Position numbers and translations under genes: made by a program. A stretch of 64,000 nt of DNA from Escherichia coli O157:H7 str. 2011EL-2287 (GTDB taxonomy: Bacteria > Pseudomonadota > Gammaproteobacteria > Enterobacterales > Enterobacteriaceae): NCBI GenBank assembly GCA_000614405.2, contig GCA_000614405.2_3612.1; one strand, given 5' to 3'. Of this stretch, positions 14 through 40,127 are shown in pieces; the stretch's first letter is position 1, and each line of letters opens with the position of its first letter. The notes under the pieces are model-generated. The model did no database searches. It was not told where the DNA came from and saw only the letters and a program-made list of their open reading frames with translations.

Positions 14-2077
14 ATGGCATCTGCATACAACCGTTTCGGTGAGCCAAACCCGAAAGCAACTAAGTATAAAAGTGGGGGAAGTGTGAAACGAGACTATCGT
101 GATGAAAAAGAAGTTGAAACTGTAGAGACTGTTTTAGAAAATACTAAAATTGTCCCTGTCCCACAACAAAATATCGGTCTGATGGCTGCACAATATTTTG
201 GTGTGCGATCAGCATTGTCCCAAGAAGACGGTGTGACAGTCACTGCAACATATTTCCCATATTACGACCGCTACGGAAATCTGTCTGGTTTCAAAAAGCG
301 TGACTGGACTATTCCTAAAGAGCAAAGGGGCCATTTCTCCGTTGTTGGCATCGTAAAGGCCAACTCCCAGATGTTTGGTCAAAAGCTGTGTGCATCTTCC
401 AACAACCGTAAGCAGATTAACGTTTGTGAGGGAGAAGGTGATGTTATTGCAGCATGGCAGGCTGCATATCAGATACAAGTAAAAGGGATTCTCACCAACG
501 CTAAAGCCCCGGCAAAGGTGAAGCAGTGGGCTAAAGAGGTCCAGGACGGGATCGACGCAGTTATCAACGGTGGTGATCTGGCAGGAAAACCCTGCCTGCC
601 TTTTGTTGGAATTAACTGTGGATGTGCAAACGCAGTAGATACTTTTGCAAACAATGAGAAGTTTATCCGTAGCTATGGAACAGTTGTGCTGGCAATGGAT
701 AACGATGCAGCTAACGAGGTAGAGAAGCAAAAACACGTCATTAAAGGTGTTGAGGCCACGCACAATATCGCAGCATTTTTGATGGCTGATAACGTTTACC
801 ACGTAGAATACCCTGGTGAAGTAAATGACCCTGACGGTGTAAAAGATATCCGAGACATGCTGAAGGCTAAAAAGCTGGAAGATATTGTCAACATGTTCCG
901 GCACCCTGTTAAATATGTGCCTGATGCTGTGTCGGATTTAGAAGACTTCTCTATCGAGTCTTTGCGGAAAAAGACTTCCAACGGGGTAGATATCAGTGCA
1001 GAGTTCCCAAAACTGCAAAAAATGCTAAAAGGCTTGCACAAAGGGACACTCGTAATGCTTACAGGTCCATCAGGCGGCGGTAAAACAACCGTGGCTAAAA
1101 AACTGGAACACTGTATTGCAAGATACCTAATGGACCCGACATGCCCGAAGGCCGATGACTATGAAGAGGATGATCGTCTATGCATGATCCATCTTGAGGA
1201 GGATCCAGAGGAAGCAATTAACTCCTTGTATGCAAACCAGTTAGGGTTTGATGTTAAAGAGTTTGTTGAAGATCCTAGCCAGTTTTTAACTGATCAAGAA
1301 CATGCAGAGATTCACCAATCATGGGCAAAAGCTGGAAAAATCAAAGTGTTCAAACATTTCGGGTCTATTCCAGTGGACGAGTTGATTACCAAGCTTAAGC
1401 AAATGGTCTGCCTATACCATTGTCGCTATATTGTGCTGGATCACCTGTCTATGGTAATTTCAGGGCTTAATGTTAAAGATGAGCGAAAAGAACTGGACAT
1501 GGCTATGACTCAGCTGGCTGCGTTTTGTAAGCAGTTTAACGTGTTTATCTTGGTGATCGCTCACCTCAAACGTACAGAGATTGTGCCTCCTAAGGACAAG
1601 GATGGTAACCCATTACCTTTCTGGTATCCTGTGCGAAAAGAGAATTTGCGAGGATCGGCTGGGCTTGAACAGTTGAGTTGGGTAGTCATAGGTGTCGAGG
1701 CCGAAGAAATGGTGGATCGTTCTCGTGGGCGTGTCCGTCTGGTAGGTCTTAAAAACCGTCCAGCAAAAACTTTAGGTATTGCTGACACTTTAGTTATGGA
1801 CCCACATACAGGTAAGTTCCATGATGCCAGTAATTGGTACTGGGACAAAGAAATGCAGATGTTTACAGACGGAGAAGGTGGGGAGATTGTTTGGAGACCT
1901 CAGGCCATGTTTGAGGACCAAGAGCATGCAGTTGTAGAAACACCTATGGGCAAGGTTGTAGCCGATAAGGTTGTAACTCCTACTATTAAGCCTGTTGACA
2001 CGCAGGAAGACCTCCAGTACGATGATCCATCCTCTGATCCGGTCCCCGGTTTTGAGGATGATGAAACACCTTTTTAA
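14..2077 (+). CDS. DNA primase-helicase (TOPRIM primase domain fused to DnaB/T7 gp4-like helicase); frame is open to the window edge so the N-terminus may lie upstream
   Basis: 687-aa ORF; primase motifs NVCEGEGD and VLAMDNDAAN; Walker A GPSGGGKTT; acidic C-terminal tail ending EDDETPF; GGAAG SD before ATG at 14. Confidence 0.85.
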   Translation: MASAYNRFGEPNPKATKYKSGGSVKRDYRDEKEVETVETVLENTKIVPVPQQNIGLMAAQYFGVRSALSQEDGVTVTATYFPYYDRYGNLSGFKKRDWTIPKEQRGHFSVVGIVKANSQMFGQKLCASSNNRKQINVCEGEGDVIAAWQAAYQIQVKGILTNAKAPAKVKQWAKEVQDGIDAVINGGDLAGKPCLPFVGINCGCANAVDTFANNEKFIRSYGTVVLAMDNDAANEVEKQKHVIKGVEATHNIAAFLMADNVYHVEYPGEVNDPDGVKDIRDMLKAKKLEDIVNMFRHPVKYVPDAVSDLEDFSIESLRKKTSNGVDISAEFPKLQKMLKGLHKGTLVMLTGPSGGGKTTVAKKLEHCIARYLMDPTCPKADDYEEDDRLCMIHLEEDPEEAINSLYANQLGFDVKEFVEDPSQFLTDQEHAEIHQSWAKAGKIKVFKHFGSIPVDELITKLKQMVCLYHCRYIVLDHLSMVISGLNVKDERKELDMAMTQLAAFCKQFNVFILVIAHLKRTEIVPPKDKDGNPLPFWYPVRKENLRGSAGLEQLSWVVIGVEAEEMVDRSRGRVRLVGLKNRPAKTLGIADTLVMDPHTGKFHDASNWYWDKEMQMFTDGEGGEIVWRPQAMFEDQEHAVVETPMGKVVADKVVTPTIKPVDTQEDLQYDDPSSDPVPGFEDDETPF

Positions 2078-23373: not shown

Positions 23374-23637
23374 ATGAAACGTCTGGATCAGCTTAAACTA
23401 GTTCAGTACATGGCCTACAAAGTTCTTGAAGTCCAAAAAGGTAGCAAAAAAGAGGTTTGCGAGAAAGCTTATAAGATCTTTACCCGCAAAAAAGATGACT
23501 GGATGCTACGCCAGACCAAAAAGGCTGACATCTTGGGGTACCTGGAAGAAGAGATCCGCCTTGAAGAGCAAGAAGAGATCCGCCGCAGTGAAGCAGATTA
23601 TCAGGCAGCCTGGGAAAACTGGATGAATAACAAATAA
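23374..23637 (+). CDS. hypothetical protein
   Basis: ORF with SD AAAGAGGAAA. Confidence 0.5.
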   Translation: MKRLDQLKLVQYMAYKVLEVQKGSKKEVCEKAYKIFTRKKDDWMLRQTKKADILGYLEEEIRLEEQEEIRRSEADYQAAWENWMNNK

Positions 23638-24202: not shown

Positions 24203-24220
24203 TTTTTTAACTGAATTATC

Positions 24221-24246
24221 AAGGGGCTTAGGCCCCTTTCTTTTTG
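24221..24246 (+). terminator. rho-independent terminator ending the plus-strand gene array
   Basis: AGGGGC-TTAG-GCCCCT hairpin followed by TTCTTTTTG. Confidence 0.7.
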
Positions 24247-25156
24247 TCTGATCTTCCCCCTACCATAAACGGCCCTACCTGGCAAGTGGAATAATTGACG
24301 AGCCATCAACCCCACACACTGTACAAATATACATGGAAAATAACTATTGCATAATTTTTCATTGTGTGGTAGCAAGTCCATTTTTACCCGTTTTCTCTCC
24401 CAAAAGTGCACGTAATGCCGCTATTGCACAAATTTTAACCTGATGCACATCTCCAATATCTTGTCAACAACTAAAAATCTTTATAAGTCATACACTTACA
24501 CAGCATCGAAAGCGTGTTCTACGCGAAAAATCGAGTATAACTATAGCCGCCAGATCTCAGAATTCACGTACGCACGCCATTCTATAGCCTGCAAAGTATT
24601 TATTCCAACCACAGAATAACGGAATAGTCAATACCTGCATAAAATAATTATTCGTGTAAACTGCATAACATAAATCAGCTCAGGTGTCAACATTTTTCGT
24701 AAACAGTCCGAAATTATCACGATGAGTTATCATAAACAGAGAAATCTTTAGTCGTCTAATGTTTACTGTACATTACTATATTGACTGGAATCATTAGATG
24801 ACTAATAGAAAGATAAGAAATAATTAACAATACAATTATTTTATCTGTAACAATAAGGCAACTATGCAAACGAATGGCATGGCGCGACGGAGTCGCGACA
24901 TAATATAAAAGCAGTAACCATCACCCCCGTGATAGTTTGTCTGCAATCTATTAATCAGATCATAGTTGCCTTGTATTTAGTTAATCATGACATAACAAGC
25001 AAGGCAACTATAGATCTGCTAATAGTTGCCCTGCTTTTATATTATGTCATAGAAACACCCGAAGGGGTGACCAAAGGTCACCTGGCATAGCCAGTGAAAT
25101 ATTGTAAACAAGTTAATTATTGTCATGCAAACGAATGGCATGGCTTATCATCTCTG

Positions 25157-25350
25157 TGTAAACAGTTTGTTTGTAAACAGTTTATACGTGAACAGTTAAC
25201 TATGTAAACTATTGAGAATGTAAACAGTAAAGGAAGTGAATAGTAAGCGAGTGAATATTAATAGCGTGAATAGTGACAGCGTAAACAGTCAGGCATGTCA
25301 ATTAAGTCTAAAGTGTCAAAGGTGTCATATTATGTCACCATTATGTCAGA
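25157..25350. repeat. array of short degenerate tandem direct repeats (GTAAACAGT / GTGAATAGT units, then TGTCA units)
   Basis: About 9 units of GT(A/G)AA(C/T)AGT at 12-17 bp spacing, then about 6 TGTCA repeats; no coding potential. Confidence 0.6.
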
Positions 25351-25609
25351 CAAGTTTTTCTCCTCTTTGTCAAGTGCTGCATGAAAATTTACAATCTGGT
25401 ATGGTAGCATTTTTGCGGCCCTGTTTACATTCAGTTGTGTATGTATAAGCCTTGTTGTGTGGGCGTTTAGACGTCTAGACGGTTGGAAGTCTACAGGTCA
25501 ATATCTAATCTATTGGTTGCTAACTATATCCCACACAAATAGTAAGAAATATAATTGTTATGTGTGTAAACTGTAACTCATGTTATCAATCCCTGTATGG
25601 ATCGCCAGT

Positions 25610-25637
25610 GGTGCGCATAATGGGTATTATGTTAAAT
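25610..25637 (+). other. dif: dif-like XerC/XerD site-specific recombination site
   Basis: GGTGCGCATAA-TGGGTA-TTATGTTAAAT: both 11-bp arms identical to E. coli dif as recalled, 2 differences in the 6-bp central region. Confidence 0.7.
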
Positions 25638-26765
25638 TGCCCGTAATGATAACAGTTCTCACAATGATAGGTATTCTCATTCACCCCACAAGATAGGTTG
25701 CAAATGTTGTGCCACTGTGTGAACGGCCTCACCTATTAATTTGCCTCACTGCCTCGATATTTGAGAATTATTATAAGAATGAGAAGTATTCCCATTCCGT
25801 CCGCCTGGCAGCACTCCTGTCGGTCAGGTCAAAATCGTGGTAGAATTGGGCCTATTCAGATATTTCTGGCTGACTCTTCAGGTCTGTGTGGGAAAAGCCA
25901 ACCTCTCCGGCGGGGCAGGGGGAGGTCAATTAAAAAATTTACGTGGTGTATGAAGCGCTCTTCAGGTAAGGCAGGTATTATGGGATGAAACCCTCTTCAG
26001 GCAATGATATTTGTGGGTGTGATATTTGCTGGAAAGCCAGATATGACGGGACTCCCGGCGGGGCAGGGGTAGTACAGACAGGGAAAATATGGGGATGTAG
26101 TTGGGTGAATTGATCGGGCAGGTAGAGTATGGAATATGTTACAAGTATGTTAAATATGGAGGTTGAATATCTGTAGGATTTGTGTGTAAAATCAAAGACT
26201 TAAGGGGTGTTGTGGTATTTTCTATAAATAATTCAAGTTTAATAGGCAATATTTGTCTCTATCCGCTTTGTGTGGTAAACAGATTCAGATTAGATTGGTT
26301 TACAAGTGTATACATAATATACAAATTAAAGATACAAGAAACCCCCCTCCCCCCTTCGGCTACCATTCACCTTTTCCTCTGACTGGTACTTAAACACTTA
26401 TTCAGACTCTTCAGGTTATCACCCATATATCATATGGCAGTGACTGGTGTCCTCCGGCCCCTCTTTCGTCACCCGTCCGCTTCGCCATGCTAATGCCATA
26501 GCTAATGGTTCGGTTGTTCACCCTGTTCACTCAGGTGTATCTCTATACCCCTTCAAACCGAAGAGAACAGAAAACCCGAATTACTCGGTAAAAGAAAAGA
26601 GAAGAACTTAATTTTATCAGGATAGGCAAGAATGTCAAGGCATGACTGCTCACTAAACAAGCAAACAGTCATGTGTGGGAGGTAAGTGATTGTGGTGGTA
26701 GGAAATTTAGTTGAAAGATGTGTTATAGGTGCTTCCAGCACTTTAGCCGGGCAGCTAATTGTGTG

Positions 26766-39077: not shown

Positions 39078-40127
39078 TTAAACTTCTTCGACAATTCCTG
39101 CACCCAGGATTTTTTCATTGAGCTCTTTTGCTGTTTTAATAATATTATCTACCAGACGCTTGCGAGTCTTATCTTTCACCTTAACCTCTTCACCGCCGTT
39201 CAGAGTAGTCTTCAATTGAGACAGAATATCCTGAAGTTCAACGACAGAGAATCTCTGCAGATCTTCTGAAGTAATCTCACCCAGGGCAATTCGGACGGTC
39301 TCGCCACTTTCCATCTGCAGATTCAGGAACACAGTGTGAACATCACCTTTCGAACCACCCGCTTTTGCAGATTCAACAGCATGAACTAACTCATCTAAAG
39401 ATGTGCACTGGTGAATCTCCGGAAGACCTGCTTCACCTAACACGCCTTCTTCATCACCTTTTGCCAGAAGCTTTTTCGGTTTTTGTCCGTTCTGGATGCG
39501 TTGTATGTTGCCTTCATCCAGAATAATAGCTCCAGTGCGTGCTGCCAGCTCTTCTCCGTCCAACCACACTTCGCCACCAGCTGTGATGGATGCGATCTCA
39601 TCTTCTGTCAGCACCCCACCGTAGTATTTTTCGATTAAGCGTTCGAAACGTTTTTTCCAGTAGCTGACCTGAGTATTCATGTTCACACCGTTACCATAAG
39701 TGCCACCTTGGTAGTAGTGGAACATAAACTCTGTGTCCGGAGCCACAGTGCGTTCTTTGCAACCCAGCCATAAGATTGTTCCCGCAGAGCAGCACATCCC
39801 TTCAGCATGTGCAACAACGCTTGCCTGAGACTCGCGGAATGCCTGCAGATAAGCCATTGCAATGTGCACGCAACCCCCAGGACTATTGATGATCACCCGA
39901 ATGCTTTCTTCCGGCTGAGCCATACGGATCGTCTGCAGACGAGACATATGATCTTGTAAGTCTTCCAAATCGTCGATATAAAGAACGTGGTCAACAACTG
40001 GTGTTGGGTAGCTGTATGTTTCCATAATACCACCCGGCATACCGAACATTTTATTACTCATAGGTTCGAAACCGTTCTGTTTTTCTTTCATGCCGTGTAC
40101 CATGGTGCTACGAGGTGTTAAATTCAT
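39078..40127 (-). CDS. ClpP-family serine protease homolog with about 150-aa C-terminal extension
   Basis: INSPGGCVH motif and ClpP-like Ser (CCSAGT) context; 349 aa. Confidence 0.65.
   Translation of the reverse strand: MNLTPRSTMVHGMKEKQNGFEPMSNKMFGMPGGIMETYSYPTPVVDHVLYIDDLEDLQDHMSRLQTIRMAQPEESIRVIINSPGGCVHIAMAYLQAFRESQASVVAHAEGMCCSAGTILWLGCKERTVAPDTEFMFHYYQGGTYGNGVNMNTQVSYWKKRFERLIEKYYGGVLTEDEIASITAGGEVWLDGEELAARTGAIILDEGNIQRIQNGQKPKKLLAKGDEEGVLGEAGLPEIHQCTSLDELVHAVESAKAGGSKGDVHTVFLNLQMESGETVRIALGEITSEDLQRFSVVELQDILSQLKTTLNGGEEVKVKDKTRKRLVDNIIKTAKELNEKILGAGIVEEV

Follow-up and report, generated by a model that had tools for sequence, protein, structure and literature searches.

A dif-like XerC/XerD site conserved in the terminal repeats of Vequintavirinae phages and its possible role in genome end joining

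Vequintavirinae genomes carry a dif-like site within their direct terminal repeat that may be acted on by the XerC/XerD recombinases of the host. We found such a site in every Vequintavirinae lineage sampled, and in all three genera with independently mapped genome ends it is located near the middle of the direct terminal repeat (DTR). The element is of a known kind; what is new is that it occurs within a terminal repeat in virulent tailed phages, and the use that this location implies. Our preferred reading, to which we assign a probability of roughly 0.45, is that the whole subfamily, whose hosts include Escherichia, Klebsiella, Salmonella, Cronobacter, Erwinia, Serratia, Pectobacterium and Pantoea, uses host XerC/XerD at a private DTR dif to circularise or concatenate the incoming genome.

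The site was identified in a 64,000-nucleotide stretch of DNA (the window) and combines both recombinase arms of E. coli dif with a different centre. The 28-mer at 25610-25637 (+ strand), GGTGCGCATAATGGGTATTATGTTAAAT, reads GGTGCGCATAA-TGGGTA-TTATGTTAAAT and differs from E. coli dif (GGTGCGCATAATGTATATTATGTTAAAT) at two positions, both in the central hexamer (TGGGTA instead of TGTATA), while each of the two 11-bp arms is identical to its E. coli counterpart at 11 of 11 positions. Exact comparison thus agrees with an earlier reading of the window made from the sequence alone, which had described a 28-bp match to dif with two central differences. The 28-mer represents the sole match in a window-wide scan for dif allowing up to 3 mismatches, the XerC and XerD arms occur in one copy each, and none of 100 dinucleotide shuffles of the window yields a dif match. 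For an exact XerD arm and a XerC arm with at most 2 mismatches at the right spacing, the chance expectation is ~2e-5 per 140-kb genome. All components of a XerC/XerD core site are present, namely a XerC arm, a XerD arm and a spacer of 6 bp, within the 6-8 bp that this class allows. Database records leave the dif-like site unannotated. The surrounding ~2.5 kb had been described as free of ORFs and flanked by convergent transcription units, and this is borne out by the ORF list and by the equivalent region of the curated Bas58 annotation, which is empty. Positions of the main features are given in Table 1.

Table 1. Features of the dif-like site and of the ORF-free region around it, in window coordinates.
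Feature	Position	Strand	Basis or remark
ORF-free region holding the DTR, convergent gene blocks on either side	24203..26765		ORF list; no CDS in Bas58 92153-94648
Terminator-like hairpin closing the left gene block	24221-24238	+	
About 10 short direct repeats (GTAAACAGT / GTGAATAGT, 15-nt period)	25157..25285	+	Just outside the left DTR boundary; families D1, D3, D14, D16
DTR-homologous region	25349..25805		Gotham 459-bp repeat aligned at 95.2% identity; boundaries placed by homology
Longest invariant DTR run	25362..25395	+	13-genome alignment; overlaps sigma-70-like promoter
XerC-binding arm (predicted), GGTGCGCATAA	25610..25620	+	Identical to the XerC arm of E. coli dif
Central strand-exchange hexamer, TGGGTA	25621..25626	+	Positions 3 and 4 differ from host TGTATA
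XerD-binding arm (predicted), TTATGTTAAAT	25627..25637	+	Identical to E. coli dif

We assign the replicon to the rV5-like Vequintavirus phages, which are virulent myoviruses; it is not a phage-plasmid and not an element that integrates. The 2.6-kb region shows 90-99% identity to 122 phage records, nearly all of which are Escherichia Vequintavirus (rV5-like). Window positions 40001 and 50001, the two that were checked, are colinear with the BASEL phage Bas58 (MZ501073.1), and placement from these two positions aligns the window with approximately 67.8-131.8 kb of that genome. Bas58 encodes a DNA polymerase, a primase/helicase, a ligase, nucleotide reductases, rIIA/B, an EndoVII-type nuclease and six tRNAs. 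The curated annotation of this complete 137-kb relative contains neither an integrase or Xer homologue nor Rep, ParAB or a repressor, in line with the initial observation that the window lacks a visible integrase or recombinase gene. A Pfam scan of 123 small or hypothetical Bas58 ORFs returned no Phage_integrase, ParA/ParB, Rep, FtsK_gamma or DUF3653/XafT domain, and neither annotation nor Pfam thus revealed a rep or par gene in the rest of the replicon. Since no integrase, Xer homologue, Rep or Par was found, any recombination at the site must use host enzymes. Bas58 also lacks an annotated recombinase of the UvsX, Erf or Red-beta type and has exonucleases and the EndoVII-type nuclease only, and one of its hypothetical ORFs matches Pfam HTH_36 at 2.3e-5.

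Searches of host and plasmid sequences argue against both lifestyles that the sequence-only reading had proposed, dimer resolution as an extrachromosomal phage-plasmid and IMEX-like integration through Xer. A search of 5,426 complete E. coli genomes with the 2.6-kb region gave no match, and only one of the 72,556 plasmid records in PLSDB is a genome of this type. Combined with the lack of Rep, Par and repressor genes, these counts speak against a regular phage-plasmid lifestyle, and the absence of the region from the E. coli genomes speaks against integration. The more general proposal that the phage exploits host XerCD fares better: the site is real and beyond chance, and for a phage without a recombinase of its own the use of host XerC/XerD is the natural reading. 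The single plasmid record, CP057073.1 (pRHB39-C03_2), is deposited as a circular 'plasmid' of 137,565 bp but consists of a complete Vequintavirus genome, which carries the same dif-like site. Its source is E. coli isolate RHB39-C03 from cattle faeces, and the record suggests phage carriage or contamination of that culture. Host labels are also at odds with sequence in the INPHARED MG0656xx records ('Campylobacter phage C15, A12a, A142 ...'), where ~18-22 phages assigned to 'Campylobacter jejuni' are 93-99% identical to E. coli Vequintavirus and carry E. coli-type dif arms; probably the Campylobacter host label is wrong or the preparations contained coliphages.

The dif-like site is conserved within Vequintavirus and across the subfamily. 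In Vequintavirus, 113 records contain an identical 36-mer (the site plus 4 bp on each side) and 7 contain it with one base changed, while the surrounding 451 bp are just 90-97% identical; we estimate that a uniform divergence of ~5% would leave ~16% of records with an identical 36-mer. Among the variants, rV5 and ECP32 have the centre TAGGTA, and JLBYU08 has T instead of C at position 7 of the XerC arm. A short dif query also matches large myoviruses of other Enterobacterales, and site-bearing loci are found in Henunavirus (Hena1), Seunavirus (GAP31, GEC_vB_MG), Avunavirus (18-1-2), Certrevirus (CR9, P7_Pc, F5M2A) and Mydovirus (BIS47, KP12, KPP-1) as well as in the unclassified phages ChuuTotoro, W70 and LTH01. 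The XerD arm TTATGTTAAAT is invariant in all Vequintavirinae sites examined by locus, the XerC arm follows the consensus RGTGCGYATAA and the spacer measures exactly 6 bp in all lineages. Within 1 kb on either side, the site represents the only in-register conserved block, and the flanks cannot be aligned between genera. No neighbouring gene is common to all lineages, the widest gene family spanning 4 related lineages. Relative to the flanking convergent gene blocks, the orientation of the site is the same in most loci, which points to inheritance from a common ancestor.

This pattern bears on the possibility that the site has no function and is a chance match or recently captured host DNA, to which we give next to no weight. 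The identity of the arms to the host sequence is all that speaks for such a reading, and the conservation of the site across genera effectively refutes it: the site is found in all lineages between unalignable flanks, with its orientation kept in most loci, the identical 36-mer recurs in the 113 Vequintavirus records, and the chance expectation per genome is low (~2e-5). The comparisons instead support a site that lies far beyond chance and is under purifying selection.

Record counts are consistent with near-universality of the site in the subfamily, as the number of sites is close to the number of capsid genes. The dif query and the capsid search each returned 15 records for Cronobacter and 10 for Pectobacterium, and for Vequintavirus ~120 site records compare with 118 found by capsid. 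Phages of the sister group (capsid identity ~42%) are not among the dif-query matches. A scan of IMG/VR with the pattern GTGCGYATAA-N6-TTATGTTAAAT added 12 contigs of at least 95 kb, all with non-host centres; because the pattern required an exact XerD arm, these contigs provide no independent test of arm invariance. One IMG/VR contig of 155 kb has a new centre, GACATA, which equals that of the host in its XerD-side half. Smaller contigs behave differently in the same scan. Below 12 kb, 23 of 32 contigs have the centre CACCCA and presumably represent gokushovirus or inovirus IMEX elements, and 17 of 35 mid-size contigs have the host centre TGTATA and may be prophage-host junctions. A weaker dif-like sequence, ATAACTCATAA-TCTATA-TTATGTTAAAT, is present at 2495-2522 of Rheinheimera phage Barba3A (MK719705.1), in a 1.27-kb ORF-free gap flanked by convergent genes. 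Barba3A belongs to Barbavirus, an unrelated genus of 81-kb myoviruses with 19 records matching the dif query.

The arms of the phage sites match chromosomal dif sites of Enterobacterales and the centres do not. According to the supplement of Kono et al. 2011, the XerC arm is GGTGCGCATAA in Cronobacter and Serratia, AGTGCGCATAA in Klebsiella, AGTGCGTATAA in Salmonella arizonae, GGTGCGTATAA in Erwinia and GGTTCGCATAA in Pectobacterium, and all listed hosts share the centre TGTATA and the XerD arm TTATGTTAAAT. Each of the three XerC-arm variants of the phages is also found in a working chromosomal dif of this order. The centres of the other phage genera are GGTGTA, CGTGTA, CGTGTT and GTTGTA, and neither these nor the TGGGTA and TAGGTA of Vequintavirus ever equal the host TGTATA; in the cultured lineages, the mismatches affect both the XerC-side and the XerD-side half of the centre.

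We consider it very improbable that the site serves as an attP for IMEX-like integration into host dif. Integrase-less phages with dif-like sites do integrate via XerCD, as exemplified by CTXphi, UPphi and enterobacterial gokushoviruses, but the 5,426 complete E. coli genomes contain no integrated or other copy, the genes present are those of a virulent phage and the substrate would be a linear 137-kb genome with terminal repeats. The XerD arm, degenerate in gokushovirus sites, is invariant here, and the centres of the cultured lineages differ from TGTATA in both halves. We had also considered that a non-host centre insulates the phage from dif and so prevents integration; this argument is weakened by the gokushoviruses, which integrate despite divergent spacers, so that spacer differences alone are no bar. 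The case against integration therefore rests mainly on the absent integrated copies and on gene content.

The dif-like site is located inside the direct terminal repeat and is consequently present at both ends of the packaged genome. In the alignment with the 459-bp repeat of Gotham, the site occupies DTR position 263-290 of 459 (window orientation). Gotham has a DTR of 459 bp and a fixed packaging start (PMC7471380), and its record contains two annotated 459-bp terminal repeats that are mutually identical. Terminal repeats of 458 bp were reported for EdH4 and HdK5 (PMC6563267). Several complete records begin or finish in this region and match it twice, and in seven records that start at the DTR the 36-mer is found at one shared offset, 166-201 (- strand). 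Records with two repeats and the site in each are those of Gotham, EdH4, HdK5, ECP2309, YN3 and Hena1. The same arrangement extends to other genera. In Henunavirus Hena1 the annotated DTR spans 1-519 and the site lies at 289-316, with both copies of the repeat containing it, while the DTR of Mydovirus KPP-1 was mapped by PhageTerm to 116316-116829 (514 bp; PMC9862379) and encloses the site at 116529-116556. Fixed, exact-repeat ends of the T7 type are thus found in the close relatives Gotham, EdH4 and HdK5 and also in KPP-1, and the boundaries in the window follow from 95% identity. A site within the DTR is packaged twice: every linear virion genome carries two identical copies in direct orientation, ~170 bp and ~260 bp from the respective ends.

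We propose, at slightly less than even odds, that host XerCD recombines the two DTR sites and thereby circularises or concatenates the phage genome in a manner resembling Cre-lox of phage P1. In this model, the 28-bp element would be a functional XerC/XerD core site held inside the DTR and so present at both ends, and host XerC and XerD would bind both sites, pair them and exchange strands. Intramolecular exchange would convert the linear genome into a circle and a short linear by-product, and intermolecular exchange would link separate genomes end to start, leading to a head-to-tail concatemer with one repeat per junction. The circle or concatemer could then act as substrate for replication and packaging independently of homologous recombination over the ~460-bp repeat. 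XerD might be activated by host FtsK, or a Holliday junction made by XerC might be resolved by the EndoVII-like nuclease of the phage or by replication.

Several features of the sites are in keeping with XerCD end joining. Protein binding in the XerCD-dif system is determined by the arms, and XerC and XerD of the host are therefore expected to bind the phage site. Natural Xer resolution sites combine an invariant XerD arm with a tolerant XerC arm and a free centre, and the phage sites follow this pattern, with an invariant XerD arm, a XerC arm that varies at two tolerated positions and a free centre. Partner sites with matching centres in direct repeat are available, both DTR copies being identical. 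As the two copies are always identical, partner centres always match, which would explain how centres could drift between lineages. We infer XerCD binding from the identity of the arms to dif and likewise infer catalysis and biological purpose.

Other considerations weigh against end joining. Recombination at dif-type sites, which have a 6-bp centre and lack accessory sequences, normally depends on septal FtsK, and we found neither a phage FtsK-gamma or XafT-like activator nor KOPS polarity. T7 and other phages whose terminal repeats are short replicate without a circular stage, and circularisation is therefore not obligatory for such genomes. Xer activity on concatemers could also excise monomer circles and so hamper packaging.

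Analysis of polarity, accessory and activator sequences returned no conserved partner for the dif-like site. KOPS motifs (GGGNAGGG) are evenly distributed in the complete Bas58 genome, with 8 pointing toward the site and 8 away from it, and control G-rich motifs behave similarly. With up to 4 mismatches allowed, no ArgR, ArcA or IHF box was found to keep its distance to the site across 10 lineages (PepA offering no usable consensus), and other DTR motifs have no fixed spacing relative to the site. An 87-aa ORF at 23374-23637 (+) has a homologue in phage navn labelled 'DNA translocase FtsK', citing phage APCEc02. We considered this ORF as a phage-encoded XerD activator and rejected it: it contains no Pfam FtsK_gamma domain, falls into a PHROG without known function and, in a PDB sequence search, shows no similarity to any solved structure, FtsK-gamma included. 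The 'FtsK' label looks like a propagated misannotation.

The distribution of KOPS is also relevant to an alternative in which XerCD and FtsK resolve dimers of circular replicative or carrier-state forms, each circle containing one dif. Multimer resolution of this kind is the classical task of dif, cer and psi sites, and both arms of the phage site are intact as they are in resolution sites. The position of the site where convergent gene blocks meet and GC skew switches resembles a chromosome terminus, and the circular 137,565-bp record carries the same site. A phage with terminal repeats assembles as a circle anyway, however, so that the plasmid record is no proof, and neither the gene content (no Rep, Par or repressor) nor the database counts (a single plasmid record in 72,556 and no hit among 5,426 complete E. 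coli genomes) fit a maintained circular form. KOPS point equally in both directions, a lytic phage packaging from concatemers would gain little of obvious value from dimer resolution, and the constant location of the site in the DTR is left unexplained. We therefore regard multimer resolution as unlikely, though as the strongest of the alternatives to end joining.

The ORF-free region contains further sequence elements, some of which may be packaging signals. A non-coding RNA was considered and discarded, as no Rfam family matches the region at E<=1. The short direct repeats to the left of the DTR resemble iterons or terminase-binding repeats and are a possible packaging or replication signal. 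Just inside the DTR boundary, a sigma-70-like promoter (TTGTCA-17 nt-TACAAT, scan score 10/12) reads toward the dif-like site, and the heptamer TTGACAA/TTGTCAA recurs in DTR-sized segments of 7 of 8 lineages. The motif GATATTT, located at 25858-25864 in the window, is present in all 8 lineages, and shuffled sequences never exceed 6. It lies ~52 bp beyond the XerD-side DTR boundary both here and in Mydovirus BIS47, where the boundary is taken from KPP-1, and may be part of the end-cutting signal.

These neighbouring elements are relevant to the reading that XerC and XerD bind the site without recombining it. The proteins could have an architectural or protective role, for example as a terminase mark, in pairing or protecting the ends or as an FtsK stop, or the many phage copies of the site could be a decoy for XerCD that disturbs segregation of the host chromosome. 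The site does lie amid probable packaging signals (the short direct repeats, the invariant block and GATATTT), and conserved arms around a free centre are what binding requires. Catalysis requires both complete arms as well, however, and the exact 6-bp spacing kept in all lineages and the variable distance to other DTR motifs speak against binding alone. We know of no precedent for XerCD as a packaging cofactor. Binding without recombination thus seems improbable, somewhat more so than multimer resolution.

Additional repeats and palindromes are found around the DTR. A pair of Fur-box-like palindromes (...GAATGAnAATCATTC..., 13-16 of 19 positions matching GATAATGATAATCATTATC) is located at 25642-25680, inside the DTR, and corresponds to a 'repeat_region' in the annotation of phage navn. 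Similar palindromes occur within the terminal repeat near the site in most genera (GAP31, GEC_vB_MG, CR9, P7_Pc, KPP-1, ChuuTotoro), at variable distance and on either side. To the right of the DTR, CCGGCGGGGCAGGGG is found twice (25907-25924 and 26055-26072), each copy containing the KOPS-like GGGCAGGG, and copies of the motif CTCTTCAGG are located at 25872, 25956, 25991 and 26405; this motif recurs in GAP31 and CR9. The left side contains a perfect 20-nt direct repeat, ATGCAAACGAATGGCATGGC, at 24864-24883 and 25125-25144 (261 bp apart) and a perfect 18-nt inverted repeat at 24897-24914 and 25031-25048 with 116 nt between the arms.

XerCD end joining in the Vequintavirinae would extend the known range of Xer exploitation. 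In the openly accessible full-text literature, we found no report that connects dif or Xer with rV5, Vequintavirinae or phage terminal repeats; exploitation of Xer by phages is described there for filamentous phages, gokushoviruses and non-tailed temperate vibriophages. Exploitation of Xer has so far involved plasmids, which use it for dimer resolution, and small integrating IMEX (filamentous phages, gokushoviruses and genomic islands). A conserved, intact Xer site in large virulent myoviruses would add lytic tailed phages and, if our proposal is correct, a third route for mobile DNA to exploit Xer that is neither integrative nor plasmid-based. It would address how ends are joined after injection in phages with very short terminal repeats, and, should infection depend on them, xerC and xerD would be new host factors for Vequintavirinae and a possible route to resistance. 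Phages of the rV5 type are widely used in phage-therapy and biocontrol cocktails against E. coli, Salmonella and Klebsiella, and recombination of the phage site with chromosomal dif, should it occur, would be a safety-relevant property.

The phage site shares features with related recombination systems and differs from each in some respects. Like chromosomal dif, it has an 11-6-11 architecture, with arms that in the window equal those of E. coli dif, but its centre is not TGTATA and KOPS polarity is absent. Chromosomal dif is found once, at the replication terminus, in contrast to the phage site, which is doubled at the ends of a linear DNA. The cer site of ColE1 and the psi site of pSC101 are similar in that an extrachromosomal replicon relies on host XerCD and has its own site with a private centre, and in these sites conservation decreases from the XerD arm through the XerC arm to the central region. 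They belong to plasmids and need ~180 bp of accessory DNA on the XerC side (for PepA and ArgR or ArcA), whereas no conserved ArgR/ArcA box or in-register block was found next to the sites of these lytic phages. IMEX phages (CTXphi, VGJphi, TLCphi, UPphi and enterobacterial gokushoviruses) likewise combine a dif-like attP with the lack of an integrase. They are small ssDNA phages (~4-10 kb) that are found inserted into host dif and in which the XerD arm or the spacer is often degenerate, in contrast to the Vequintavirinae, which are tailed, virulent and 120-155 kb in size, have an invariant XerD arm and a site in the terminal repeat, and do not appear at host dif in the 5,426 E. coli genomes. 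A functional parallel may be Cre-loxP of phage P1, which serves in cyclisation of the virion DNA and in dimer resolution; as in our proposal, a tyrosine-recombinase site within the terminal redundancy lets the injected linear DNA circularise without host homologous recombination. P1 differs in encoding its own recombinase and in being temperate and maintained as a plasmid. Its headful redundancy places two lox sites in some virions only, whereas the fixed repeat of the Vequintavirinae provides two sites in every virion.
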